A stretch of 64,000 bases of DNA from a virus (taxonomy: Duplodnaviria > Caudoviricetes): the IMG/VR virus record IMGVR_UViG_3300022602_000025. One strand, given 5' to 3'. This document shows positions 2 to 64,000 of this stretch, piece by piece. Both the position numbers and the translations under genes were made by a program. Each line of letters opens with the position of its first letter. Positions within the stretch are counted from its first letter, which is position 1. The notes under the pieces were generated by a model. The model saw only the letters and a program-made list of their open reading frames with translations, had not been told where the DNA came from and made no database searches.

Positions 2-373
2 TTAAACACGTTTAAGACAAAGACAGCTACTCTTACAACTACTACGAATACTAAAGTATATACTACTCCTGTAGGTGTAACAGCGATTATTTTGATGGCG
101 AACGTAGCAAACGTTGATCCAAATAACACACATGAAATTACGTTTAGTCATTACAGAAACTTGCCAGTTCTACCAGATACACAAGGTAACGGCGGTCAGG
201 TAGGCAACACAATTACTGAACAGGTTAAGGGATTTGCGATACCACCAAATAATGCCGCTTCATTATTATCAGGTAAACTGATTGTAGAAAGTTTAGATAG
301 CATTTACGCATCAGCAGATGCAGAGGGAGTCCTTAAATTAACATTGAGTATTCTAGAATCTGCAAATAGTTAA
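2..373 (+). CDS. Small virion structural protein, 5'-truncated by the window edge
   Basis: The frame of ORF 92..373 is open back to position 2 (LNTFKTKTATLTTTTNTKVYTTPVGVTAIILMAN...). It heads the co-oriented fibre gene cluster. Confidence 0.6.
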   Translation, partial: LNTFKTKTATLTTTTNTKVYTTPVGVTAIILMANVANVDPNNTHEITFSHYRNLPVLPDTQGNGGQVGNTITEQVKGFAIPPNNAASLLSGKLIVESLDSIYASADAEGVLKLTLSILESANS

Positions 374-385
374 TAGAGATATATA

Positions 386-2395
386 ATGCCACAATTATTA
401 AACCAGAACGTTGCCCTAACATACACCTCAGGAACTAATAAACAGTTCTTAGGGCTAGGTGGTGCTCAGCCTTATTTGGGATTAACCCCAAGTACTACTA
501 CTGGTTTTACATTAGTATCTAATCCGTTAACAGGACAACCATACTTTGTAAGCACATTAGGTGGTGCTTATTTTAATAATAGTGTTATTACAGCACAAAC
601 AACTAATACTGACCTTACTTTAACATCTACAGGTACTGGTAGATTAATATTAACAGGTAATGTTGTAATTAATGCTAACAATTTACAAGTTACTACAGCT
701 ACCTTCCAAGATTTAACGATCACTAACGCAGCAAACTTTGTATCAACTACTACTAATGTCAACATGAGTGCTAGTTTGTACATCAGCAAGAGTTTAGATG
801 TTGGTGTTAACGCATACATTCATGGTAGTTTAGAAGTTTATGATAACGTAACTTTTGAACCAAACAATGGTAATGTTAATATTCGTCCTACAGGACTAGG
901 ACAAGTTGTAATATATCCTGACTCAGTTGGTTATATTGACAACATGGACATTGGTCAATATGCTCCAGCTAACGGCCGATTCGTTACATTAACAGCTACA
1001 AACTTTGTTATTCAAAATACATCGTTTATTGACCTAACTGTATCAAATTTAACAGTTACAAATAACTTAGTTGTAACTAATTTCTTTGCGCCAAGTTTTT
1101 CTGCAAATACAGCAACTATTAACAATAGCCTTAGTGCTCCTGCAATTTATGAAAATGGTAATCAAGTATTAACGAATGTAGTAGTTAATACCGGACCAGG
1201 TCTTTCAAGCACAGTTAACATATCTGGTGTAACCGCTACTATTGCATTAACCAACACAGGTGTAACAAGTTTAATTGCAGGTAGTGATATTTATTTGTCT
1301 AGCGGTACTGGCAATATTACTATTGCAGATAGTAGCACATTACAATCAGTAACTAGTCGTGGTGCTACAACTACTAATGTTGTATATTTTAATAACGCTA
1401 CACCAGCAGGAAGCACAACTGGATCTATAGTTGTAACAGGTGGTGTGTACGCCAGCGCAGGTATTTTTGCAGATGGTCTAACAACTTTCCGTGGATCGGG
1501 CAATCAAGAATATACGATAAGAGTTGTAGGCGGCTCAACAGGCGCTCAATTAGCAATTGGTACTAGCGGAGTATCCACATACGGTATTGAAAGTGATGTT
1601 CTTAATGCTGCCGGATCAGGTTTTGCAAAATTAACTCAAACAGCTAGCGAGTTTCATTTTAATGTAGCAAATAGTAGCGGTATTCCTGTTCAAACAGATG
1701 CACTAGTAGTCAATGCGAACGGCTATGTAATTATTAATAGCAGTCAAAATGCAAGTAATCAAACTACTGGCGCCTTACAAGTAGTCGGCGGAGTGGGAGT
1801 AGGTGGTAATTTATATGCCGCTAATATTTTCTCAAATGGTTTCCAAGTAACTACATCAAGCTCGTTAACATTTGAATACCACGGAAGCATTTTAGGCACA
1901 GCAGGAACAGTTAATCTTGATAGAGGATTTACAGCAACCGTAGTTGGCGGTGTTATTACAATTGATACCGTTGCAGAAGTAGGTGTTACAAGTATTACAG
2001 CTGGCACAGATATTTCAATTACTACATCAACTGGCGCGGTAACAGTTAATGACACAAGTACACTACAAACTGTAACTAGTCGCGGAAGCACAACTAATAA
2101 TGCAGTAAATATAACAAATGGTACTAATGCAACTACATCAACAACTGGTGGCGCATTACATGTATCAGGTGGTGTTGGAATTGGTCAGGACTTATGGGTA
2201 GGCGGTAGCATTTATGATACTAATGCTGGATCACCTTACTATGGAGGATTATTATTCACTCCAAATGTAACCTTAAGTGTAACTCCTCCAGCAAATCCAC
2301 GTATTGGAGATTTTTGGTACGATAGTAACAGTTACTCATATCAGTTTATTCAAGACGGTACTAGTACATTCTGGATACAGATTGGTGCATTTTAA
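386..2395 (+). CDS. Tail/whisker fibre-like structural protein (669 aa)
   Basis: T/G/S/V/N-rich, with two STLQxVTxRG modules and GALxVxGGxG repeats. The C-terminal PPANPRIGDFWYD...WIQI module is typical of phage fibre proteins. Confidence 0.7.
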   Translation: MPQLLNQNVALTYTSGTNKQFLGLGGAQPYLGLTPSTTTGFTLVSNPLTGQPYFVSTLGGAYFNNSVITAQTTNTDLTLTSTGTGRLILTGNVVINANNLQVTTATFQDLTITNAANFVSTTTNVNMSASLYISKSLDVGVNAYIHGSLEVYDNVTFEPNNGNVNIRPTGLGQVVIYPDSVGYIDNMDIGQYAPANGRFVTLTATNFVIQNTSFIDLTVSNLTVTNNLVVTNFFAPSFSANTATINNSLSAPAIYENGNQVLTNVVVNTGPGLSSTVNISGVTATIALTNTGVTSLIAGSDIYLSSGTGNITIADSSTLQSVTSRGATTTNVVYFNNATPAGSTTGSIVVTGGVYASAGIFADGLTTFRGSGNQEYTIRVVGGSTGAQLAIGTSGVSTYGIESDVLNAAGSGFAKLTQTASEFHFNVANSSGIPVQTDALVVNANGYVIINSSQNASNQTTGALQVVGGVGVGGNLYAANIFSNGFQVTTSSSLTFEYHGSILGTAGTVNLDRGFTATVVGGVITIDTVAEVGVTSITAGTDISITTSTGAVTVNDTSTLQTVTSRGSTTNNAVNITNGTNATTSTTGGALHVSGGVGIGQDLWVGGSIYDTNAGSPYYGGLLFTPNVTLSVTPPANPRIGDFWYDSNSYSYQFIQDGTSTFWIQIGAF

Positions 2396-2411
2396 TTAAA
2401 GAGATATATAA

Positions 2412-5400
2412 ATGGCATTTTTTAACTTTCCACCGAATCCAAATATAGGCGATACCTACACAGTAGGATCGAAGACCTATGTGTGGAATGGTTACGCTTG
2501 GACTTTACAAGCAACGTTCCAAGCAACTAGCATTACTGTAGACACTATAACCGTAACAAGCTCTACAAATTCTACTGCTACAACCAATGGTGCGGCAGTT
2601 ATTGCAGGCGGTTTAGGTGTTGGCAGAGACATAACTGTCGGTGGATCAGCATATATCGCGGGTGACCTATACGTTGACGGTACACAAACTGTTGTTAATA
2701 CAGTACAAATACAAACAGGCGACAAGAATTTAGTTTTAAGCACTAGTGCAACTTCTGCATTAATGGCAATCAATAGCGGTATTGAAGTAGGTCCAGCAAG
2801 TTCTCCATATATCACATGGCTATACGACGGTGTCGGTAACTGGGTATCTAGCGGTGGTGTTATTGTTGACACTACAGCATCTATATTATCAAATTTAAAT
2901 GCTACAACTGTAACTAACGGTGCGTTAGTTGTTAAAGGTGGTGTTGGAATTGGTGGCGCATTATATGTTGGCGGCAACATGTATAGTGGTGGCTACCAAG
3001 TAATTACTACAGCAAACTTTTCTTCAACTGGCGTAACATCAGTTAATGCAGGTCCTGGAATTAGTGTTAACCATCCAACGGGTGATGTTATTGTTTCTAA
3101 TACAGGTGTTCTTGCAATCATTACAGGTAGCGACGTTACAATCAATCAACCAAATGGTTATGTAACACTAGGCGTAACTTCTACATTACAAACTGTAACT
3201 AAACGAGGTAACTCAACTGATCAGATCATCTACATTACCACTACGACTGACAGTTTTAATACTACTACAGGTGCATTAGTTGTAACAGGTGGTGCAGGGT
3301 TTGGCGGAACAGTTAATATTGGCGGAAGTTTAGGTGTTATTGGAATTGTTAACGCTTCACAATTATATGAAGGCGGGGTCAACCGTGTACTAACTTCAGC
3401 CACAATAGTTGCAGGTACAGGCTTAAGTGGTGGTGGTACAATTACAGGTCCTGGCGGAACAGTAACCTTAACTAACGCAGGTGTAACATCTCTTGTAGCC
3501 TCAACAGATCTTTCTGTAAGCGGATCAACTGGTGACATCACGATTTCAAATACCTCTACACTACAAAGTGTAACAGGTAGAGGTAACGTAACAACTAATG
3601 CGATTGGCATTACAAATCTAACTCAATCAAATACTCCAACTGGCGGCGCACTGGTTGTTGCTGGTGGTATTGGAGTTGGAAAAGATTTACGTGTTGCTGG
3701 TACAATGTATCAGCAGGGCAATTTAGTTATCGATGCTGTCAATATTTTCAGTCACGCTGTTACCTCATTAGTAGCAAGTCCTGGATTATATGTTGATCAA
3801 AATCAAGGCGACATTACAATCAGCAACTACGGTGTGCTCGATTTATCTAGTGATGGATATATTGGTCTAAGCAACAACACTGGTTCTATCTACATTACAA
3901 ACTTAGGTGTTCAAAGTGTAACAGCTGGTGTTGATATGAGTGTAAGTGCTAACACTGGCACAATTACAATAGATAACACAAGTACTTTACAGTCAGTAAC
4001 GTATCGTGGAGGCACAACTAATAACGCTATCGCAATTACTAACCAAACTTATAGTGCAAGCACATCGAACAGTCAAGCATTATTAGTATCTGGTGGTATT
4101 GGTGCATTGATGGTTACAGCAAGCGTTATATTTGATAACGGTAATCGCGTATTGACTAATGTTGTTCCAACAGCAGGATACGGAATTGATGTTACTAGCT
4201 ATACTGTTAATGGTACTACAGCATCATTCACAATTGATAACTTAGGTGTAACTAGTTTAACAGCAGGTACAGATACCGCTGTAACAGCAAATACAGGCGA
4301 TGTCGTTGTATTCACTACATCAACCCTACAATCAGTAACTAATAGAGGTAATGCAACTTCTAATGCAATAGAAATTGATAATATTTCATTCAGCAGTTCG
4401 ACTATCGCAGGCAACGCTTTAGTTGTTGCTGGTGGTATTGGTGCTCAAACATTATATGTTGCTGGTACAATTTACACGAACGGTCAGGCTGTAGCAACAA
4501 CAGAATCTATTTCAACTAATTCAGTATCTGCAATTTACACAGGTCCTGGTATTAGTGTTGATAATCATACAGGTACTGTAACAGTTTCTAACACAGGTGT
4601 TATTGCTATCGTAGCAGGTACTGATGTATCAATTGATTACACTGGCACATATCCAGGAAGCGGTGTCGTAACAATCAACGACACATCAACATTCCGCTCA
4701 GTAACATATAAAGGATCTACAACTCCTTACTCATTAAGCATCACAAGCTCAACAAATGCCACAAGCACAACAACAGGTGCTTTAGTAATCACAGGCGGTC
4801 TAGGTGTTGGACGCGATATTTGGGCTAGAAGCATGTGGTCTAATGGTGCTCAGGTTGTTACTACAGCAACATTAGGAAATTTAGGTGTAAGTTCAATCAC
4901 AGCAGGTTCTGGAATTAGCGTTTCTGCACCAACTGGCGACATAACAATTACCAATACAGGTGTTACACAGCTTAACGGTTCAACTTACATCGGAGTTAAC
5001 AATCAAACTGGTAATATTATCATCTATAACTTAGGTGTACAAACCTTAACAGCAGGTGATGATTTAGCAGTAAGTTCAAACACAGGTACTGTAACAGTTA
5101 GTTCAACAGCTACATTACAATCTGTGACCAACAGAGGATCTGTAACTAGTAACGCTATTAGCATTACCAACGTAACTCAGTCAACAACAATGACCAACGG
5201 TGCTCTAACCGTTGCAGGTGGTGCTGGTATCTCTAAGAATTTAAACGTTGGTGGCAATAGTACAATTTACGGTAACTTAACTGTTGTTGGCAATGCGTCA
5301 TTCATTGGTACATCAACTTATGTTTCGTCAACAAACACTTACTATACTGACAACTTAGTTGATCTCCACGTTCCACCTAGCGGTCCGATGGGCATGTGGA

Positions 5401-7535
5401 CTACTGATGACGGCTTAGACATTGGTTTCAAAATGCACTACTACAAGAGCGGTCTTAGCGATAACGCTGCCCTTGTACGTGATAATGCTAGCGGCGAATT
5501 ACATTGGTATGGAAGTGGTGCATCTTCTACAACAACATTCGCTGCATCTAACTTAGGTGCGTTCAGAGCAGGTACACTTTATGCTTCAGGCGGTGTAAAT
5601 GCTACAACTACCAACTCGGGTGACCTACAGGTAAGTGGTGGCGCAGGTATCGGACAAGATTTATATGTAGGCGGTAATGCTTACATTGGTGGCCAAGCTG
5701 TAATTACTACAGCAAGTATTAGTTCTTATGCGGCTACAAGTATCGCTGGTGGCAATTCTGGAATTTATGTAACAACTTCAAACGGAGTTGTATCAATATT
5801 CAATTACGGTGTAAACAGTATCCAAGGAACAACATACTTAGGTGTGAGTGCATCAACAGGATCAGTACTATTAACTAACTTAGGTGTTCAACAGATTACT
5901 ACAGGTAGTGGTATCGTTGTAAGCCAGTCAACAGGCACAGTTAATATTCAAAGTATTGACACACTACAACTTGTTACACAGCGCGGCCAAACAACTAATC
6001 AAGTTATTACACTAACTAATGGCGCAAATGATCCAGTAAGCACATCAAGCAATCAAACATTGATTGTACAAGGTGGTATTGGTGCATTAAGTGTTGCGGC
6101 TAGCGGATTATTTGATAACGGCAACCGTGTAATTACTAGCGTAACTGTTACAGCAGGCAACGGACTAGGCGGTGGCGGTACAATTACAGGACCAACAGGT
6201 GCTGTAACATTAACTAACATGGGTGTTACTAGCCTTGCTAGCGGTACAGATATCACCTTAAGTGCTACAACAGGATCTATAACAGTTAATGATGTTAGCA
6301 CATTACAATCAGTAACAGGCCGCGGTGCAACAACTAACAATGCACTTACAGTATCTAATAATTCATTAGGTACAACTACATCAACAGGCAATGCGTTAAC
6401 TATTGCAGGGTCAATTGGTGCATTACGTGTTAATGCAACTAACGTATTTGACAACGGTGTTCGTGTAATTACAAACGTAACTCCTGTTGCTGGTACAGCA
6501 ATTACTATTTCATCAGTAAGTACTTCAAACGGTACAATGTCATTCACTGTTAATAATGCAGGCGTAACAAGTATTTCTGCAGGAACTGACACAGCCGTAA
6601 CTGGATCAACTGGTGCTATCACAGTATTCAGCACAGCAACACTACAGTCAGTAACTAATCGCGGTGCTACAACTAATAACGTAACTTACTTTACTAATGC
6701 TTCTTCAAGCAGTAACAGTATTTCTGGCAACGCATTACAAGTACCTAATGGCGGTATTGGTGCTGGAACAATTTATGCTACAGGTAATGTGTATGCTCAA
6801 GGATTACAGGTTGCTACGATTTCTTATGTAACAACTAATACCGTTGCCAATATCCAACAAGGTCAAGGTATTGCTGTTACAGCAAACACTGGATCTGTAA
6901 CAGTCAGCAACACAGGTGTAATTGCTGTTCAAGCAGGTACAGATATTAGTATTTCCGGCACAGGATCTTATCCGGGTGCAGGTACTGTAACGGTAACTAA
7001 CACAGCAAACTTACAAACAGTAACACGCCGTGGCGCAACAACACCATATACTGTATCAATTACTAGCTCGTCAAATGCTGTAAGCACCAACTCTGGAGCT
7101 TTACAAGTAACAGGCGGTGTAGGGGTTGGACAAGACGTATGGGTAGGTGGCAATGTTTATGCTACACAATCAGTATTAATTGGTTCTGCGGCTGTTGCGG
7201 CATCGACACTCGGTGCAAGCACTAACTCTAATGCTGTAATTACAGTAGATAGTTACCCAGCATTGACTTATAGAACAGCCAAATATATTGTACAGGTGGT
7301 TGATAGCGGATTTACTCCAAGCAAAGTGCATGTTGAAGAAATTATGGTGTTCCATGATAACAACGGATTAATAACTATTCCGTATATCATCCAATACGGG
7401 TTAGGTTATAATACAACAGAACTAGGTACCTGGAACGCTGTGTACTCAGGAGGTAACATCTTGCTACAATTTACTCCAAGTTATACACCAACTAACATGG
7501 TTGTAAATGCTCAAAGGATAGCTCTAAGTACGTAA
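2412..7535 (+). CDS. Giant modular fibre protein (1707 aa)
   Basis: N-terminal FPPNPNIGDTYTVGSKTYVWNGYAW and ten TLQxVTxRG-type modules. The C-terminal DSYPALTYRTAKYIVQV...EEIMVFHD domain resembles the ends of T4-like virion structural proteins. Confidence 0.75.
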   Translation: MAFFNFPPNPNIGDTYTVGSKTYVWNGYAWTLQATFQATSITVDTITVTSSTNSTATTNGAAVIAGGLGVGRDITVGGSAYIAGDLYVDGTQTVVNTVQIQTGDKNLVLSTSATSALMAINSGIEVGPASSPYITWLYDGVGNWVSSGGVIVDTTASILSNLNATTVTNGALVVKGGVGIGGALYVGGNMYSGGYQVITTANFSSTGVTSVNAGPGISVNHPTGDVIVSNTGVLAIITGSDVTINQPNGYVTLGVTSTLQTVTKRGNSTDQIIYITTTTDSFNTTTGALVVTGGAGFGGTVNIGGSLGVIGIVNASQLYEGGVNRVLTSATIVAGTGLSGGGTITGPGGTVTLTNAGVTSLVASTDLSVSGSTGDITISNTSTLQSVTGRGNVTTNAIGITNLTQSNTPTGGALVVAGGIGVGKDLRVAGTMYQQGNLVIDAVNIFSHAVTSLVASPGLYVDQNQGDITISNYGVLDLSSDGYIGLSNNTGSIYITNLGVQSVTAGVDMSVSANTGTITIDNTSTLQSVTYRGGTTNNAIAITNQTYSASTSNSQALLVSGGIGALMVTASVIFDNGNRVLTNVVPTAGYGIDVTSYTVNGTTASFTIDNLGVTSLTAGTDTAVTANTGDVVVFTTSTLQSVTNRGNATSNAIEIDNISFSSSTIAGNALVVAGGIGAQTLYVAGTIYTNGQAVATTESISTNSVSAIYTGPGISVDNHTGTVTVSNTGVIAIVAGTDVSIDYTGTYPGSGVVTINDTSTFRSVTYKGSTTPYSLSITSSTNATSTTTGALVITGGLGVGRDIWARSMWSNGAQVVTTATLGNLGVSSITAGSGISVSAPTGDITITNTGVTQLNGSTYIGVNNQTGNIIIYNLGVQTLTAGDDLAVSSNTGTVTVSSTATLQSVTNRGSVTSNAISITNVTQSTTMTNGALTVAGGAGISKNLNVGGNSTIYGNLTVVGNASFIGTSTYVSSTNTYYTDNLVDLHVPPSGPMGMWTTDDGLDIGFKMHYYKSGLSDNAALVRDNASGELHWYGSGASSTTTFAASNLGAFRAGTLYASGGVNATTTNSGDLQVSGGAGIGQDLYVGGNAYIGGQAVITTASISSYAATSIAGGNSGIYVTTSNGVVSIFNYGVNSIQGTTYLGVSASTGSVLLTNLGVQQITTGSGIVVSQSTGTVNIQSIDTLQLVTQRGQTTNQVITLTNGANDPVSTSSNQTLIVQGGIGALSVAASGLFDNGNRVITSVTVTAGNGLGGGGTITGPTGAVTLTNMGVTSLASGTDITLSATTGSITVNDVSTLQSVTGRGATTNNALTVSNNSLGTTTSTGNALTIAGSIGALRVNATNVFDNGVRVITNVTPVAGTAITISSVSTSNGTMSFTVNNAGVTSISAGTDTAVTGSTGAITVFSTATLQSVTNRGATTNNVTYFTNASSSSNSISGNALQVPNGGIGAGTIYATGNVYAQGLQVATISYVTTNTVANIQQGQGIAVTANTGSVTVSNTGVIAVQAGTDISISGTGSYPGAGTVTVTNTANLQTVTRRGATTPYTVSITSSSNAVSTNSGALQVTGGVGVGQDVWVGGNVYATQSVLIGSAAVAASTLGASTNSNAVITVDSYPALTYRTAKYIVQVVDSGFTPSKVHVEEIMVFHDNNGLITIPYIIQYGLGYNTTELGTWNAVYSGGNILLQFTPSYTPTNMVVNAQRIALST

Positions 7536-7589
7536 TTATAAAATAGAATAAATACCGTGTAACCAGCCGTTACGTGGAAAGGGAAACTA

Positions 7590-10500
7590 ATGGCAAATAA
7601 AGATTTTATCGTCAAAAATGGAGTACAGGTCTTAGGATCTGGATCGGCTCCTTCAACTAGCACTCAAACAGGCGCTCTTGTCGTACAAGGCGGTGTCGGT
7701 ATAGCCAACGATGTTTGGGTAGGCGGAACTTTATATGCCAACGGTGCAAAAGTTTTAACAACATCTACACTAGGAAGTTCTGGTGTATTAAGCATCACAG
7801 CAGGCACAGATACCGCTGTAGTTAATACTTTAGGTGCTTATACAATATGGAACACTTCTACCCTAGCATCTATTACCGGCCGCGGTGCTAGTACTCCAAA
7901 CGCAATCAGTATTACAAATTCAACATCTGCTACATCAAGCAGTACAGGTGCGTTAACAGTAGCGGGCGGTGTTGGTATCCAAGGAACACTATATGTAGGT
8001 GGCACAACCTACATTAATGGCGACTTATGGGTTGACGGTTCTCAAACAATTTTCAACACAACACAAATTCAAACAGCAGATAAGACATTGGTATTATCTA
8101 GCTCTACAACACTTGCAGGCACAGCGGCAGGTAGTGGTATTATTATCGGTAGCACAAGTTCTCCTTTCGTTAGCATGTTATTTGACGGTAGTCAGACATG
8201 GAATATCAAAGGCAACATGGTTCCAACATCAAATTTTGTGTTGGGTACCCTAGCAAATCCGTGGAATACAGTTTACGGAAATCAGTTATACGACAATTCA
8301 AATCGTGTAGTAACAAATGTTACACCATATGCAGGTTCAGGTATAGGTGTTGTTGGATTAATCAGTGGTGGTCCAAGTCCAATCTTTACAATTACCAACA
8401 TGGGTGTTGTAAGTTTATCAGCAGGATCAGGCATCAGTGTATCAGCATCTACTGGTAGTGTTACTGTTTCAAGCACAGATACCTTACAGTCAGTAACTGG
8501 TCGTGGTGCAATTACTCCATATGCAATTAATATTACTAATGCAAGTAGCACAGCCTTCCAAGTAACAGGTACTATTACAGCAGGCGCACTATTTGTAAAC
8601 GGTGCGGCAGCATGGACAACAGCGACCTTAACTAATGTAAGTCAGTTAAACAACGATGCAGGATACTTAACAAGTTCAACTATTGGACTGTTTGGTGTTA
8701 GTGCTATTAATGCTGGAGCAGGTATTTCAGTAAGTGCAAGTACAGGATCTGTTGTAGTTACTAATACAGGTGTGTTGAGTCTATTTGCAGGTACTGACAC
8801 AGCAGTAAGCTCAACTAGCGGTAACATTACAATCTGGGATATTAGTACATTACAATCTGTAACTAATCGCGGATTTACTACAACTAATTTAATTAACATT
8901 ACCAATACCACAACAGGCGGTAGCACTTTAACAAACGCAGTTACTGGCGCATTAACAGTTGCAGGCGGCATTTCTACAAACGAAAGCCTGTGGGTTAACA
9001 GTTACGGAGTAGTAGGCAATCCTACTAATGCAGGATACGGTACATTACAAGTTGGCGGAAACAGTTTAGCTACAGGTACATCTGTTGCATATCAAGTTTC
9101 TTTACAAGGAAGAAACAACTTAGTAGCATCAAGTTTCAGTCCATTTATTAATTGTACCACAGCTACAACTAGCTCAGCAGGAACAATTTTCTCAAGCATT
9201 GGCCTACGACAAATTACAGGCCTAGCAGGAACTAACGTAGCATTTTTCCAACAGTCAATCGCTTATGGTACAAAATATGCACTGAGCATTTATGTAAAAT
9301 ATTCAAGCCTAGTTAACAGTTTCCAAATTGCTGCAGATATTTCAGCGGGTTCAAGTTATGCTAACGTAGTAGTTGATGGAATTTCTCTACAGGTTAGAAG
9401 CGACCTTGGCACAAATCCTGAAGCATATATCACTCGTGTAGGCGGTGGCTTATACAGACTAACAGGTATCATCACTAGTGGTGCTAGCGGCGCCGCTAAA
9501 AATGCTTACGTTTATGCCCTTGGTACATTTGTTGGCACTGAAGTCTTAGTTGCATCACACGTACAATTAGAATATGGCGCCGGTGCAAGTGCTTATACAC
9601 AAACTATTGGATCGGCTGTAGCTACACCAAATAATTTATTTGTTCCAACAGGGCAAGTAATTGTTAATCCAGGCACAAGTAGTTTACCAGGATACTCATT
9701 TACGGGTATAAGCCCCGCGGCTAGCGGATTATACCTAAATGGTGGTATCACTTGGACATTAGGCGGAACTCCGTCTGGAACATTAGCTGCCAGTGGTGTA
9801 CAAATTTTAAGTACTAGCTCGTTCAGTTGGGCAAGTTCAGCAATTAACGGTGCTTCAGATACATATATCTGGCGAGATGGTCCTGGTATTCTATCTGTAC
9901 GTAACGGAAACTCTGCACAAACACTACGAATTTATAATACATTTACAGATGGTCTTAACTACGAACGTGGTTTCGTTCAGTGGACCGGAAATAGATTTAA
10001 TATCGGTAATGAATACGCAGGTACGGGTGCTGCTAGAGGCATAACATTTAATACTCCGTCAGATTTATTATTCCAAACAAATAATACTATCGGTAATGGA
10101 TGGCAAATCGTTACTAGCGGTAGTTTAATTCCTTCAACAACTAATGCGTTTGACCTAGGTAGCACGGCAAACGTAGTCCGTACTGGCTATTTTGGTAATA
10201 CAGCTTCTACAAGTACTATTACTGGTGCTCTTGTTGTAGGTGGTGGTGCAGGTATCGGTGGTAACGTATACATTGGCGGTAACTTAACCGTAGGTGGCGC
10301 TGTTAACATTTACGGATCTATTAACACAGCAACTAACGTAGCTGGCGGAAATGCCGGTCAATTAATATATCAAACAGCACCTGGACTATCTGGATTTGTA
10401 ACAACAGGTACAAATGGTCAAATTTTAATTAGTCAAGGTACAAGCGGTCCGACATTCTTAAGTACATCAAGTGTGTATGTAGGTAATGCCGTAACTGCAA

Positions 10501-46312: not shown

Positions 46313-46384
46313 AAAGATTCTTAGATGTAGTTGCATTTAAGAAACAGGCATAAAACAAAGGCACATAATATAAGGAGAAATAAC

Positions 46385-47398
46385 ATGGCATCTTTGGCAG
46401 AAATTAGAGCAAAACTTCAGGCATCAAGCCAACAAAACACTGGCGGTTCCGCTGGTGGTGACAACGCAATTTTCGCACACTGGAACATCAAAGAAGGTAG
46501 TACTACAACAGTACGTTTCCTACCTGATGCAGACCCAAACAACACTTTCTTCTGGATTGAACGAGCAATGATCAAATTGCCATTCGCCGGAATCAAAGGT
46601 GAAACAAATTCCAAACCCGTAACAGTACAAGTACCTTGCATGGAAATGTGGGGAGAAACTTGTCCTATTCTTACTGAGGTTCGTCCTTGGTTTAAAGACA
46701 AGAGCTTGGAAGATATGGGTCGTAAGTATTGGAAAAAGCGTAGTTACTTGTTCCAAGGTTTTGTAACTAACACCGATTTACAAGAAGATAAAACACCAGA
46801 AAATCCAATCCGTCGTTTTATCATTGGTAGCCAAATTTTCAATCTTGTTAAGAATGCTCTTATGGATTCTGAGATTGAAGAACTACCAACAGACTATGTT
46901 CGTGGTTTAGATTTCAAAATCACAAAAACATCAAAGGGTGGTTATGCAGACTATTCAACATCAACTTGGGCTCGTCGTGAACGTACTTTGAGCGATGAAG
47001 AAAAAGCCGCTATTGACACTCATGGTTTGTTTGATTTAAAATCATTCTTACCTAAGAAACCAGGCGAAGTAGAACTCAAGGTTATCAAAGAAATGTTCGA
47101 AGCATCAGTAGATGGCGAAGCATTTGATATGGACCGTTGGGGACAATACTACAAGCCAGCAGGTATGGGTGGTAGTGGTCAAGCAACTGGTGCTCCAAAA
47201 GCATCAGCAGCTGTGTCAACAACCGCAGGAGAAGATGATGAGGCCCCTTTTGAGACAGCGGCGTCAGCACCCGCAGCTCAAGTTGCTGAAAAGGCTCCTG
47301 TGGCAGAGAAAACTGAATCAGCGTCAGCAGGTTCGGATGCAAGTGATAGAGCAAAAGATATCCTTGCAATGATTCGCAATCGCCAAGCAAAACAATAA
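46385..47398 (+). CDS. gp32: Single-stranded DNA-binding protein
   Basis: VRFLPD...FW.ER, CMEMWGETCPIL, LDFKITKTSKGGYADYSTS, acidic/Ala-rich tail. True start MASLAEIR follows the SD aaggag. Confidence 0.92.
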   Translation: MASLAEIRAKLQASSQQNTGGSAGGDNAIFAHWNIKEGSTTTVRFLPDADPNNTFFWIERAMIKLPFAGIKGETNSKPVTVQVPCMEMWGETCPILTEVRPWFKDKSLEDMGRKYWKKRSYLFQGFVTNTDLQEDKTPENPIRRFIIGSQIFNLVKNALMDSEIEELPTDYVRGLDFKITKTSKGGYADYSTSTWARRERTLSDEEKAAIDTHGLFDLKSFLPKKPGEVELKVIKEMFEASVDGEAFDMDRWGQYYKPAGMGGSGQATGAPKASAAVSTTAGEDDEAPFETAASAPAAQVAEKAPVAEKTESASAGSDASDRAKDILAMIRNRQAKQ

Positions 47399-47411: not shown

Positions 47412-48479
47412 ATGACAAAGAGCTTTGATATTTCGAAGTTCCGTAAGTCTATCACTAAATCTATTGATGGCTTAGGAATTGGTTTCAACGATCCAACAGA
47501 TTGGATCTCAACTGGCAACTATGCACTAAACTATCTTATCTCAGGGGACTTCTTTAAGGGAGTTCCCCTTGGTAAGGTTACAGTTTTTGCAGGAGAGTCG
47601 GGCGCAGGTAAATCATATATCTGTTCAGGTAACATTATTAAGTCCGCACAAGAACAGGGCATTTTTGTTGTCTTAATTGACACAGAAAACGCACTAGATC
47701 AAGCGTGGTTAGAAGCATTAGGTGTTGATATTTCAGAAGAAAAACTTTTGAAACTTAACATGGCGATGATTGATGATGTTGCAAAAACTATCAACGAGTT
47801 CATGAAAGAATACAAATCAATGCCAGACGAAGAACGTCCAAAGGTATTGTTTGTAATCGACTCACTTGGTATGTTGCTTACTCCAACTGACGTAAATCAG
47901 TTTGAAGCAGGCGACTTAAAAGGTGATATGGGCCGTAAACCTAAAGCACTTACAGCATTAGTTCGTAACTGTGTAAATCAGTTTGGTAACTATAATGTTG
48001 GACTTGTTTGTACAAATCACACATACGCTAGTCAAGATATGTTTGATCCAGATGATAAAATCTCAGGCGGACAAGGCTTCGTTTACGCAAGTTCTATCGT
48101 GGTTGCCATGAAGAAGTTGAAGTTGAAAGAAGACGAAGATGGTAATAAAGTAAGTGATGTATTGGGTATTCGTAGTGCTTGTAAGATTATGAAAACTCGT
48201 TACGCAAAACCGTTTGAAAGTGTACAAGTTAAGATTCCGTACTCAACAGGTATGGCTCCTACTTCCGGATTAGTTGACATGTTCGAGAAAATGGGTGTAT
48301 TATCTAAAGTCGGGAATAAATTAGCATACACTAGTAAGGAAACTGGTGAGATTGTTGCAGAGTTCCGTAAAAACTGGACTGAAGATAAGTTACATATCAT
48401 CATGAAAGAATGGGATGCTAACGCTCTCGCAACTACTACAACAACAACTACTACTGACGCAGAGGAAGAAGAAGCATAA
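47412..48479 (+). CDS. uvsX: RecA-like recombinase
   Basis: FAGESGAGKS Walker A, IDTENALD, VIDSLG, DMGRK, TNHTY, SGG.GF.YASSI. Confidence 0.95.
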   Translation: MTKSFDISKFRKSITKSIDGLGIGFNDPTDWISTGNYALNYLISGDFFKGVPLGKVTVFAGESGAGKSYICSGNIIKSAQEQGIFVVLIDTENALDQAWLEALGVDISEEKLLKLNMAMIDDVAKTINEFMKEYKSMPDEERPKVLFVIDSLGMLLTPTDVNQFEAGDLKGDMGRKPKALTALVRNCVNQFGNYNVGLVCTNHTYASQDMFDPDDKISGGQGFVYASSIVVAMKKLKLKEDEDGNKVSDVLGIRSACKIMKTRYAKPFESVQVKIPYSTGMAPTSGLVDMFEKMGVLSKVGNKLAYTSKETGEIVAEFRKNWTEDKLHIIMKEWDANALATTTTTTTTDAEEEEA

Positions 48480-61345: not shown

Positions 61346-62212
61346 TTAAGTGCGACGCATACAAGTTGTCTTGGCCATAGCTTGCCAGTTAAGCGGAAAG
61401 CTCTTACGCAAGTCTGCTACCTTGAGTACCATACGCAGGGATAGCTCACGCAGCTTGCTCTTGTTACTATCAATGAATGCGATCAGCTCATCCTTGACCA
61501 CAGGTTCAAACTCATAGTGATCCAGCATGCCACCATCGTTGACTACCTGCTTGATACGCAAGATCTTCTCGCGATCAGTATCCATCTGTAGATCGATATA
61601 GTGACAGCGTGACTCTAGTGCGTCCAAGTGATCACGCAAGCGTTTGCTCTTCACGTGCTCAAACTTGATGTTAGTGATAAAGATCGCTGCGCCCTTGAAC
61701 TCGAATGAGTTAGGCACTCCTTCTGAACGTAGTAGACGGCTGTCAGTGTTCCAAGCGATAGTACGCTTCTTGCTAGAGTCTAGTGCGCCCTTTAGGATGT
61801 TCAGGGAGAGGTCTTCCATAAGGATCGAGTCACAGTCATCAAACACCAGCACGTGGTTTTTGTCTGAGAACTCGTAGAGCTTTGAGTAGAGTCCAATAGC
61901 TGACATAGCACCCTTGACGATCTCATACTTGGGCTTACGCTCGCCTAGTGTATCAAACAGGCCGTCTTTAGATAGCACAGCTTCAACACCGTGTGATTTA
62001 CCTACACCTGGAGGACCTGATACGATCATAGCACGGACATCACCTGACTTCACAGCGCGGGTCATGTCAGTGAGGATATCAAAACGCTCTTTGAGACGAG
62101 CAAGGATCTCTTCGTCTGACTCTTTGGCTACTTCACGCTCTCTGAGTGCGATAGCTTCTTTGTCAAATTCCAGCACAGTTACTGCTTTTGATGCTTTTGC
62201 TTTAGTTGCCAT
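61346..62212 (-). CDS. AAA+ ATPase (early gene)
   Basis: GPPGVGKS Walker A, LVFDDCD Walker B, IFITN sensor-1, ALESRC arginine finger. Confidence 0.9.
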   Translation of the reverse strand: MATKAKASKAVTVLEFDKEAIALREREVAKESDEEILARLKERFDILTDMTRAVKSGDVRAMIVSGPPGVGKSHGVEAVLSKDGLFDTLGERKPKYEIVKGAMSAIGLYSKLYEFSDKNHVLVFDDCDSILMEDLSLNILKGALDSSKKRTIAWNTDSRLLRSEGVPNSFEFKGAAIFITNIKFEHVKSKRLRDHLDALESRCHYIDLQMDTDREKILRIKQVVNDGGMLDHYEFEPVVKDELIAFIDSNKSKLRELSLRMVLKVADLRKSFPLNWQAMAKTTCMRRT

Positions 62213-62242
62213 TTAGTTGCTTCCTGTAGTGTTTAAATGTGT

Positions 62243-62271
62243 ATTATACTATCGTTTTCGTATGTTGTCAA
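62243..62271 (-). promoter_or_regulatory. Early sigma70 promoter P1
   Basis: TTGACA(62271-62266)-17-TATAAT(62248-62243). Confidence 0.9.
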
Positions 62272-62473
62272 TCAGTTCTAGGGTTGATTCTTCCACATGA
62301 TCGCAACCGTCTAGGGTCACAGCTACCATCATGTTGAGCACCACACGGGCATCAGCACGTGATCCCTCGTTGAGGGTTTCAACGAATCTCAAGACCTGAT
62401 CACGGCCTTCCATCATCCACAGAACGTCTGCGATCGCACGTTGCCTGCGGGTGAGTCCTTCAATCTTGATCAT
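62249..62473 (-). CDS. Hypothetical early protein (74 aa)
   Basis: Start moved to MIKIEG, 1 nt after the upstream stop. Ends IDNIRKR. Confidence 0.65.
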   Translation of the reverse strand: MIKIEGLTRRQRAIADVLWMMEGRDQVLRFVETLNEGSRADARVVLNMMVAVTLDGCDHVEESTLELIDNIRKR

Positions 62474-62474
62474 A

Positions 62475-62861
62475 TTATGCCCCATAGTATACAGCGTCCT
62501 GATCAGCAGCTGAGTCTGCGTAGGTGTTCAGTTCAATCATACGCAGATCCAAGTAGTCAAACTCGGGTTCTGCGTAGGTGATCTCACCCTCATACTCCTG
62601 CTGTGATCTTTCAAACTCTGAGAGCCATCCATTGTCTTCCACGTGGACTCCTAGGATGTATTCGCGGCAGTAGTCGTTTGATCTTTCGATATCACCGCGG
62701 ACCATATCAACGATCACTTCAGTGTCCACGTTGCGAGGAACATTGGTGATCTTGTAACAGGAGCCGCCCTTCATCTTCCAGTGCTGAGGGCACTCACCCT
62801 CGCCATCCCACGCATGGGCGCCATAGTTCTCCATGTACTGCGTGTCAATTACTAGAATCAT
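62475..62861 (-). CDS. Hypothetical early protein (128 aa)
   Basis: SD caggag. Carries the QYMENYGAHAWDGEGECPQHWKMKGG motif. Confidence 0.75.
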   Translation of the reverse strand: MILVIDTQYMENYGAHAWDGEGECPQHWKMKGGSCYKITNVPRNVDTEVIVDMVRGDIERSNDYCREYILGVHVEDNGWLSEFERSQQEYEGEITYAEPEFDYLDLRMIELNTYADSAADQDAVYYGA

Positions 62862-62893
62862 TCGAGCTCCTGTTTTGTTAGTGTATGTGTAGT

Positions 62894-62922
62894 ATTATAC
62901 TACAGGTTTTACCGTTTGTCAA
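62894..62922 (-). promoter_or_regulatory. Early sigma70 promoter P2
   Basis: TTGACA(62922-62917)-17-TATAAT(62899-62894). Confidence 0.9.
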
Positions 62923-63229
62923 TACGGATGATTACACCCTGTGGCGTAGAAACAACACCATACCCGTTAGCCTCAAACAAGCAGATCACCTGTTTAGCCA
63001 TAGCATCCTTAGCACGAGCTCCCTCTGCTTTGATAGCGATGAACTTCTTGCGGTAGTTGATGTAGAGTTTTGAGTAAGAGAACGCTGTGTCTAACAGATC
63101 GCGGGCTGTGATAGCCTTACGCTGTTGTTCAATTGAATATGTGCTGCGATTGTTTGAGTTGCGACGCTGTGCATCCATAGCTGCTGCAAATGCAAATCCG
63201 CCTGCTTCTTTAGTGTCTAGTTCTTTCAT
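62909..63229 (-). CDS. Hypothetical early protein (106 aa)
   Basis: SD caggag. Ends IRIDKR. Confidence 0.75.
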   Translation of the reverse strand: MKELDTKEAGGFAFAAAMDAQRRNSNNRSTYSIEQQRKAITARDLLDTAFSYSKLYINYRKKFIAIKAEGARAKDAMAKQVICLFEANGYGVVSTPQGVIIRIDKR

Positions 63230-63259
63230 TTCTCGCTCCTGTAGTGTTAGTGTATGTGT

Positions 63260-63288
63260 AGTATAGCATCAATCTATCTGTATGTCAA
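63260..63288 (-). promoter_or_regulatory. Early sigma70 promoter P3
   Basis: TTGACA(63288-63283)-17-TATACT(63265-63260). Confidence 0.88.
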
Positions 63289-63454
63289 CGATTTTACCAT
63301 CTCTAAAGATGAAATATTCGTTGATAGCACCGTAGTAGGCCCAGATACAGTCGTTGCCCTGGGAGAGTGTGTAATGCTCTACTCCCCGCTCTTCGTAGTG
63401 AGCTGCTACCAGCATGACCTCTAAGGGGTTCAACGTGGGTGCTATCCTGATCAT
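63269..63454 (-). CDS. Hypothetical early protein (61 aa)
   Basis: The ATG overlaps the upstream TGA. Ends IVDIQID. Confidence 0.6.
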   Translation of the reverse strand: MIRIAPTLNPLEVMLVAAHYEERGVEHYTLSQGNDCIWAYYGAINEYFIFRDGKIVDIQID

Positions 63455-63708
63455 CCCCAATCCTTCTTATCACCGTACTGTTCATTGTAACGGTAACCAG
63501 CCATGTACTCAGCCACTGATTCTTCGTCAGTAACCGCTACACGATCCCCTGAATCGCCACCAACACCGCCATAGTGTGGGTTAGGGCTGCGATCATAGTA
63601 ACTGTCTGCTGAGCCACGATCATACAAGCTGCCGTGACGATCGCGTACGAACTGGGGTCCCTTCAGGGCGCGGATGATCCGCTCTTGTTTTGTGAGTTGT
63701 GGATACAT
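63451..63708 (-). CDS. Hypothetical early protein (85 aa)
   Basis: Start moved to MYPQL after the SD ggagg. Carries RHGSLYDRGSADSYY and EYMAGY motifs. Confidence 0.7.
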   Translation of the reverse strand: MYPQLTKQERIIRALKGPQFVRDRHGSLYDRGSADSYYDRSPNPHYGGVGGDSGDRVAVTDEESVAEYMAGYRYNEQYGDKKDWG

Positions 63709-63709
63709 A

Positions 63710-63850
63710 TTAACCTCCAAATGCCAACATACCAACGATAAAACCCAACGCAAAGATGCAGGTGTAGCCTACTAGCTTGTCGCCCTGTTCAGGGGTTGGG
63801 ACCGGGATTGCTTCAATTAGTTGCTCTAGTTTACGACCGATTAATTCCAT
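63710..63850 (-). CDS. Small early membrane protein (46 aa), absent from the ORF track
   Basis: MELIGRKLEQLIEAIPVPTPEQGDKLVGYTCIFALGFIVGMLAFGG. SD taggag, directly downstream of P4. Confidence 0.7.
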   Translation of the reverse strand: MELIGRKLEQLIEAIPVPTPEQGDKLVGYTCIFALGFIVGMLAFGG

Positions 63851-63879
63851 TTCTGCTCCTAGTGTTTCAGTGTATGTGT

Positions 63880-63908
63880 AGTATAGCACAGGTTTTACCG
63901 TTTGTCAA
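63880..63908 (-). promoter_or_regulatory. Early sigma70 promoter P4
   Basis: TTGACA(63908-63903)-17-TATACT(63885-63880). Shares TTGACAAACGGTAAAACCTGT exactly with P2. Confidence 0.9.
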
Positions 63909-63910
63909 CC

Positions 63911-64000
63911 TAAATTAGCATGAAGGGCTGGATCTCTGGGATACCTTCCATGCTTTCGCCCATCTCTTCCGGTGTGTTGAATGAAGTACTGAACACTGGC
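63911..64000 (-). CDS. 3' end of an early gene entering from beyond the window
   Basis: Open frame ...PVFSTSFNTPEEMGESMEGIPEIQPFMLI*, whose TAG lies 1 nt before the P4 -35 box. Confidence 0.45.

Follow-up and report, generated by a model that had tools for sequence, protein, structure and literature searches.

Why does a tailed phage carry four near-identical promoter-leader cassettes within a short part of its genome, and why does the -35 box of three of them form the last codons of the gene before it? We addressed this question for positions 62,213 to 63,910 of a 64,000-nucleotide (nt) stretch of DNA, hereafter the window, from the Caudoviricetes record IMGVR_UViG_3300022602_000025 of IMG/VR, in which the cassettes are numbered P1 to P4. 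The first-pass annotation of this locus had read them as an integron-like array, in which the promoter repeat serves incoming genes as the recombination site and as the source of their last codons and stop. Our analysis points, with a probability of about 80%, to strong host-type promoters with a shared leader that act as preferred crossover points for the shuffling of early genes, resembling the promoter/stem-loop cassettes known as PeSLs in T4-type phages, while the ends of the upstream genes are not borrowed. What carries this reading is the anatomy of the cassettes, their clade-wide conservation, the mosaic gene order around them, the enrichment of breakpoints within them, one chimeric promoter and the native C-termini of the upstream genes.

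The motif TTGACA-N17-TATAMT has exactly four perfect matches in the whole window, all on the minus strand, while shuffled sequences gave a mean of 0.06 and none of 100 shuffles reached four. Cassette P4 (63851..63908) consists of the -35 box TTGACA at 63908-63903, the 9-nt element GGTAAAACC in the spacer at 63899-63891, TGn with the -10 box TATACT at 63885-63880, and a CA-rich leader with AGGAG that runs to the ATG at 63850. In P3 (63230..63288), the -35 box at 63288-63283 encodes the V-D codons of the upstream gene, whose stop TGA (63271-63269) falls within the spacer; the -10 box TATACT follows at 63265-63260, and the leader and AGGAG extend to the ATG at 63229. P2 (62862..62922) has its -35 box at 62922-62917 as the codons I-D-K, the upstream stop TAA inside GGTAAAACC (62913-62905), the -10 box TATAAT at 62899-62894, and leader and AGGAG to the ATG at 62861. 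In P1 (62213..62271), the -35 box at 62271-62266 and the spacer make up the last eight codons of the upstream gene, the stop TAG (62251-62249) abuts the -10 box TATAAT (62248-62243), and a diverged leader with AGGAAG leads to the ATG at 62212. The leaders are about 29-32 nt long; those of P2, P3 and P4 read ACACATACACT(A/G)A...AGGAG, that of P1 reads ACACATTTAAACAC...AGGAAG, and in each of the four cassettes 5-8 nt separate the ribosome site from the ATG. The first 21 nt of P2 and P4 are identical (TTGACAAACGGTAAAACCTGT). The overlapping frames are ATT GAC AAC ATA CGA AAA CGA TAG (IDNIRKR*) at P1, ATT GAC AAA CGG TAA (IDKR*) at P2 and GTT GAC ATA CAG ATA GAT TGA (VDIQID*) at P3, while at P4 the upstream stop TAG is followed by a single G and then TTGACA. 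All of this agrees with what the first-pass annotation had described: four promoters with near-identical leaders, that of P1 diverged, the 21-nt identity between P2 and P4, the -35 box inside the upstream open reading frame (ORF) at P1-P3 and 1 nt past the stop at P4. The genes upstream of P1, P2 and P3 are real, with orthologues in 33, 3 and 15 related loci, respectively.

The window corresponds to positions 7504-71503, reverse strand, of a 151-kb IMG/VR record with an estimated completeness of 43%, numbered L089 among the loci analysed here. A scan of this record, which the first-pass annotation had proposed, identified 14 such promoters on the plus strand at 241-9233, as well as a 15th with two mismatches, and almost none elsewhere. 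Thus, at least 14 cassettes stand in the first 9.3 kb, and P1-P4, as the last four, are the downstream end of a longer array that is itself cut by the end of the contig. Directly behind P1 lies the gene of a 288-aa AAA-type ATPase (61346..62212, minus strand; PHROG 1250, T4 NrdC.10-like). Using this ATPase as the query, we retrieved 80 related IMG/VR loci on contigs of up to 355 kb, with protein identities of 64-85%, and in 63 related loci the gene is the conserved anchor that marks the array's downstream end. Allowing at most one mismatch to the two hexamers, we found that the 63 non-redundant loci contain 693 promoters, which corresponds to roughly one every 500 bp, nearly all on the gene strand. 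The consensus extends beyond the hexamers, with GG before the -35 box (about 70%), TGn before the -10 box (about 60%), and a transcript start of A-c-A-c-A-C-A-T-A followed by an A-rich stretch and the ribosome site, giving the leader ACACATAC. About 70% of 646 promoters retain the GG at -2/-1 of the -35 box, also where the upstream gene had stopped earlier, and the GG seems to be a feature of the promoter itself, unlike the AT-rich UP-like tract of PeSLs. The consensus GG-TTGACA-17-TGn-TATAAT-ACACATAC can be used to mark early regions in metagenomic contigs of jumbo phages and to flag ORFan genes that probably function in host takeover or anti-defence.

Gene order upstream of the ATPase was mosaic. 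One family had 5-10 different successor families across loci, and loci that shared a gene shared its successor in only 25-29% of comparisons. Invariant gene order among relatives would speak against the shuffling at promoter repeats that the first-pass annotation had proposed, and the order we found was highly variable. We then took a census of breakpoints in locus pairs of 90-97% identity, with the cassette footprint defined as -15 to +60 of the -35 start. Homology-block edges fell inside cassettes in 38 of 75 cases, compared with 12.6% expected from the footprint (p=2e-15), and, among junctions between genes, those with a promoter carried an edge in 22% of cases and those without one in 9.7% (odds ratio 2.7, p=0.007). 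Moreover, the promoter at L037:7255 is chimeric, combining the -35 box and spacer of L026:6697 with the leader of L026:6977; the crossover lies within a shared 12-nt sequence of the -10/leader region, TATAATACACAC, and a 280-bp one-gene unit at this site is present in L026 only, compared with L037. Other events included a 1.7-kb insert between two promoters and a swapped module order between L065 and L066. The mosaic order, the breakpoint enrichment and the chimeric promoter, all seen in relatives, support the proposed shuffling at the promoter repeats. The likeness of the cassettes also follows the genome and the neighbouring gene: promoters of the same genome had spacer and leader similarities of 0.371 and 0.505, against clade baselines of 0.321 and 0.438, and spacer similarity was 0.386 for promoters with a shared upstream gene and 0.339 for those with a shared downstream gene. 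The first-pass annotation had each module ship the promoter for its neighbour; this stands insofar as the -35 box and spacer tend to travel with the upstream gene, often and not always. In the phage's own genome, outside the window, two promoter-leader repeats of 67 nt (L089:2377-2443 and 2599-2665), which are 99% identical, flank a single 54-aa ORFan. The pair has a period of 222 bp, a layout expected to delete or excise by homologous recombination. Finally, contigs from lake metagenomes link modules of this phage to other modules with the joints in leaders, for example from the P3 leader to the gene at 5213, from the P1 leader to the gene at 2875, and from the leader at 7214 to the gene at 532. 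Joints of this kind that go back were considered as circle junctions and set aside, the simpler account being other gene orders in relatives and mixed populations.

Several observations weigh against this reading or narrow it. Successor conservation hardly differed between promoter junctions (0.25) and promoter-less ones (0.29), and 28 of the 75 edges fell outside the windows of both promoter junctions and promoter-less gene junctions. Crossover at the cassettes is therefore a preference and not a rule; a strict model in which modules move only at promoters was rejected, adjacency being conserved to a similar degree with and without a promoter. Conserved promoters can attract BLAST edges and would thereby raise the apparent enrichment. 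The metagenome joints have short sides and come from mixed populations, so that they are at best consistent with shuffling, and contigs from RNA libraries that span parts of the early region may reflect DNA carry-over and are no proof of transcription. The closest genomes reach at most about 80% nucleotide identity, and no recombination event can therefore be read for P1-P4 themselves. These four cassettes also contain no real stem-loop, folding at only -0.4 to -1.9 kcal/mol.

Given that the -35 box overlaps the gene before it in P1-P3, it matters whether these gene ends were acquired with the promoter. Across the clade, the stop of the upstream ORF fell inside the promoter in about 42% of cases, and almost no upstream ORF read past the -10 box. 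The TGA of TTGACA served as the stop (T-TGA) in 116 of 643 promoters, the frame xTT-GAC with a stop in the spacer occurred in 110, and TTG-ACA in about 35, the first two frames each being about three times as frequent as the last. We compared protein ends between orthologues with and without an overlapping promoter. In family 27, which precedes P3, all 15 members end in D[IV]QID*, including the four without an overlapping promoter; three of these (L024, L045 and L046) end in HDIQID* followed by unrelated promoter-less sequence, and L009 ends in IDVQID* with the promoter 31 nt past the stop. The tail codons of this family vary at third positions, as in coding sequence. Members of family 5, which precedes P1, all end at the same protein position: L[IL]DKFR[LI]* in those with an overprinted -35 box, and LLKQFTL*, ILQSFRK* or VLKPYML* in those without, the first two having K-Q and Q-S instead of D-K. 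The -35 box stands in two further registers (RLTK*, G-TGA) in still other members. For family 102, which precedes P2, the best-scoring 120 of 359 database homologues were used: 99 of these 120 are 105 aa long, and their endings are RIDK* (48), RIAK* (33), RIAR* (14) and RIVK* (7). At two loci with RIAK* or RIAR*, the promoter begins 3-4 nt past the stop and not inside the gene, and the ending RIDKR* of this phage is unique and one residue longer. Over 31 families, promoter-overlapped members (with about the last six codons inside the promoter) differed from non-overlapped orthologues in tail length by a median of 0 aa and a mean of +1.7. Similarly, family 3 always ends in SR[LM]D*, with the promoter lying anywhere from 148 nt behind the stop to sharing the TGA of the stop, and family 14 has a G-TGA ending inside TTGACA in 18 of 22 members. 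A real small extension was seen in family 43 of this genome, with VVDKR* compared with VA* in the orthologues.

Because orthologues end alike without an overlapping promoter, the promoter is overprinted on a native C-terminus. The claim that last codons and stop are borrowed from the promoter is thus mostly refuted; homologues without the promoter, which the first-pass annotation had expected to lack the [IV]D tail, have the same end position, and what survives of the claim is that one to three residues are sometimes added, as in RIDKR* and VVDKR*. The -35 overlap is, on this comparison of protein ends, best described as genome compaction by overprinting onto native last codons. Its cost is at most a changed residue (e.g. 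from A, V or K to D, typically an Asp from GAC) or one to three extra residues, and in other cases a natural TGA stop is re-used within TTGACA. The hundreds of cases document the extent to which promoters can be overprinted on gene ends in a compact phage, and they caution annotators that C-terminal [IV]D tails are not acquired sequence.

How might such cassettes work? From these sequences we infer that the promoters are active, that they act early and that the mechanism is homologous recombination. The stretch would represent the downstream end of an early region that depends on the host RNA polymerase, where each cassette, a near-consensus extended sigma-70 promoter (GG-TTGACA-17-TGn-TATAAT) followed by a CA-rich unstructured leader of about 25-30 nt and a strong AGGAG ribosome site, would drive one to three small ORFan genes. 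Because this unit of about 60 nt recurs every 500 bp or so in one orientation, the cassettes offer short patches of homology. Crossover there could proceed through the phage's own recombination system, for which a RecA/UvsX-like gene is present, or with co-infecting relatives, and single genes or small modules would be gained, lost, exchanged and reordered, as reported for PeSL cassettes. Such crossovers would favour the cassette, notably the -10/leader, without being confined to it. A tentative extension, which we consider possible and no more, is that the unit of exchange consists of the leader, the ORF, and the -35 box and spacer written in the ORF's own 3′ end, with crossovers focused on about 12-35 nt of the -10/leader. 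If so, every early gene would contain, in its coding sequence, half of a promoter to serve any gene that comes to lie behind it, no reshuffling would leave part of the array untranscribed, and the system would be a coding-embedded variant of PeSL shuffling that lacks the stem-loop and is active in present-day lake populations.

Other explanations of the repeated cassettes have to account for the same data. An integron-like capture array, with incoming genes spliced in at the -35 box, shares with the locus a row of small, mostly unknown genes split by a repeat at which recombination adds or removes single genes, and it is favoured by the frequent stops inside promoters, by the few tails that look added, and by the greater likeness of -35 box and spacer among promoters with a shared upstream gene. 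It is nevertheless contradicted by the orthologues that keep C-terminus and length without an overlapping promoter, by the absence of a median tail difference and by third-position variation in tail-encoding spacers; the one visible crossover lies in the -10/leader and not in the -35 box. A search of the 151-kb record, estimated at 43% completeness, gave no tyrosine or serine recombinase (PF00589, PF00239), hence neither integrase nor resolvase, and attC and attI sites were also absent, the sole repeat being the promoter-leader itself. Integron cassettes are promoterless and read from one Pc promoter, whereas here each has its own promoter, and exchange here appears to be based on homology and not on site-specific recombination. 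The integron-like mechanism is therefore not supported; having predicted different ends in homologues that lack the promoter, the model is largely refuted on its own terms, and we regard it as very improbable. A purely regulatory account, in which selection for a maximal sigma-70 promoter and an optimal leader keeps the cassettes alike while general recombination shuffles genes independently of them, fits the fact that the conserved positions are largely those of promoter strength (-35, TGn, -10 and the A-rich start), as well as the nearly equal adjacency conservation with and without a promoter and the many breakpoints elsewhere. Yet it does not explain why breakpoints show a 4-fold excess relative to the cassette footprint and a 2.3-fold excess relative to promoter-less gene junctions, why a chimeric promoter has its crossover in shared cassette sequence, why same-genome likeness exceeds the baseline in spacer and leader, where non-hexamer sequence is not needed for sigma-70 binding, or why a 99%-identical 67-nt repeat flanks one ORFan. 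We consider this account unlikely.

It is also conceivable, though rather doubtful in our judgement, that the GGT-AAA-ACC dyad of the spacer element GGTAAAACC is bound by a dimeric protein, of phage or host origin, that turns the early promoters off or on all together, and that this, and not recombination, keeps the cassettes alike. The element occurs nine times directly (L089 positions 250, 485, 1220, 1738, 2388, 2610, 3976, 7605 and 8591) and once inverted (7176) in the 151-kb record, with 0.5 expected per strand; it is confined to promoter spacers, mostly 3 nt past the -35 box, and appears in 95 of 649 clade promoters, most frequently in this genome. Against a fixed binding site, P1 and P3 lack the element and their spacers encode protein tails instead, and no candidate binding protein was identified. 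Moreover, other spacers of the clade contain differing hairpins. About one-fifth of clade promoters have a strong hairpin between the -35 box and the -10 box, in which TGACAGG... of the -35 box pairs with ...CCTGTTA before the -10 box (e.g. L073:178-206, L062:5025-5053, L079:6051-6079 and L068:9857-9885). The stems show compensating changes and close on RNA-type tetraloops of the GNRA or UUCG kind (GCAA, GAAA, TTCG), which argues for structure over a fixed binding sequence. Folding at -5 kcal/mol or lower was found for 22% of clade promoters compared with 8% of spacer shuffles, and 28 promoters had at least seven nested pairs where 4.8 were expected. Covariation at a fixed register was weak over 589 unique spacers, the stem-loop being a minority class of variable register, and in this genome the best-folding promoter reaches -5.3 kcal/mol, nearly all of the 14 being without a real stem-loop. 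These features suggest that the clade hairpins function in read-through RNA, e.g. as a terminator or stabiliser, and GGTAAAACC itself might serve a dimeric protein as its operator or be the vestige of a spacer hairpin. An operator would in any case be compatible with promoters that double as preferred crossover points, and the two are not exclusive.

We next compared promoters acting as crossover points with systems already described. PeSLs are strong sigma-70 promoters with a stem-loop that span the interval between the stop of the upstream gene and the start codon of the downstream one, cluster in hyperplastic regions, and recombine with one another to yield indels, replacements and mini-circles (PMC2839356, PMC4122927); they have been described in the T4-type phages RB49/phi1, T4/PST and KVP40/nt-1 (Arbiol et al. 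2010, PMC2839356; Comeau et al. 2014, PMC4122927). The cassettes here are likewise near-perfect sigma-70 promoters in repeated copies (TTGACA-N17-TATAAT, shared with RB49/phi1) whose 3′ end holds the Shine-Dalgarno sequence and ATG of the next small ORFan, they form dense one-directional arrays in a hyperplastic early region, and the endpoints of indels, replacements and displacements lie within them in the relatives. Part of the clade even has the commonest PeSL layout, a GC-rich stem-loop in the interval from the -35 to the -10 box. The comparison with T4-type early-promoter cassettes made in the first-pass annotation is thus borne out, minus the stem-loop in P1-P4: these and nearly all 14 cassettes of the genome lack the terminator half. 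Further differences are that PeSLs begin past the upstream stop in an AT-rich stretch, whereas here the stop often lies inside the promoter and GG precedes the -35 box, that a conserved CA-rich leader belongs to the repeat, and that the phage is not T4-like. In addition, the mini-circles and the promoter and terminator activity of PeSLs have been demonstrated, while the present cassettes are described at the level of sequence. If the reading is correct, PeSL-type shuffling of promoter cassettes, described for T4-like phages, would also take place in a large freshwater clade of uncultured jumbo phages related to PA5oct. PA5oct itself relies on host RNA polymerase, and TTGAC and TATAATA promoter motifs stand at its mapped transcript starts (Lood et al. 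2020, PMC7318152), with 32 promoters reported for its whole 287-kb genome (PMC7318152). It is the nearest cultured relative and resembles the present phage in its reliance on host polymerase and in these motifs; around its homologous ATPase, however, the arrangement differs, with coding sequences on both strands and no row of cassettes in the annotation, which was compared here in place of a promoter scan.

The record encodes a tail sheath, a tail tube, a large terminase, a DnaB-type helicase and a RecA/UvsX-like protein. Its closest cultured phages are the Pseudomonas jumbo phages of the PA5oct group (Arenbergviridae), with identities of 54% for the terminase and 50% for the ATPase, and T4-like phages are more distant. 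The phage is an uncultured freshwater jumbo myovirus distantly related to PA5oct. The gene of the RecA/UvsX-like recombinase (PF00154, 60.7 bits; window 47412-48479, plus strand) adjoins a second ORF of equal length, 355 aa (46331-47398, plus strand). A search of GenBank phages for near-identical DNA found nothing, and the best related loci have only about 80% nucleotide identity to this genome. In public lake-water and freshwater metagenomes of 2012-2018, up to 91% of the sampled words of L089:1-10400 were present, and up to 43% in metatranscriptome libraries; contigs from public runs over this region break at the promoter repeats.

The genes between the cassettes are all small and on the minus strand of the window. 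The ORF preceding P4 is present with its 3′ end (63910..64000), its start lying outside the window; it ends in ...FMLI with the stop TAG at 63912-63910 and has no homologue among the related loci. Behind P4 follow a 46-aa ORF (63710..63850) with a hydrophobic C-terminal half and no homologue in the related loci, an 85-aa ORF of family 18 (63451..63708) that is present in 20 related loci, and the 61-aa ORF of family 27 (63269..63454; 15 loci), which overlaps the preceding gene by an ATGA start/stop. P3 is followed by the 106-aa ORF of family 102 (62909..63229), whose database homologues are mostly 105 aa long, and P2 by a 128-aa ORF of family 16 (62475..62861; 21 loci) and the 74-aa ORF of family 5 (62249..62473; 33 loci), which ends in ...LIDNIRKR*. 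None of the six small proteins of the stretch, including those of the 46-aa, family 18 and family 16 ORFs, matched a Pfam or PHROG family.

Turning to non-coding features, neither the whole early region (at E<=1) nor the window (at the gathering score) matched an Rfam family, and the 151 kb contain no antisense counterpart of the leader. T4 RegA and RegB, which act at early mRNA leaders and GGAG sites, were unmatched in a search in which the controls were unmatched too, so that this outcome carries no weight. A conserved non-coding stretch of about 110 nt at L089:7059-7169, just outside the window, located behind a family-10 gene and kept in this place in more than 20 related, very diverged loci, likewise had no Rfam match and may represent a small RNA, a processing site or a terminator. 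It begins with TCGCTCCAAGTCC and contains the hairpin CCTGGG-GGTAGTGT-CCCAGG.

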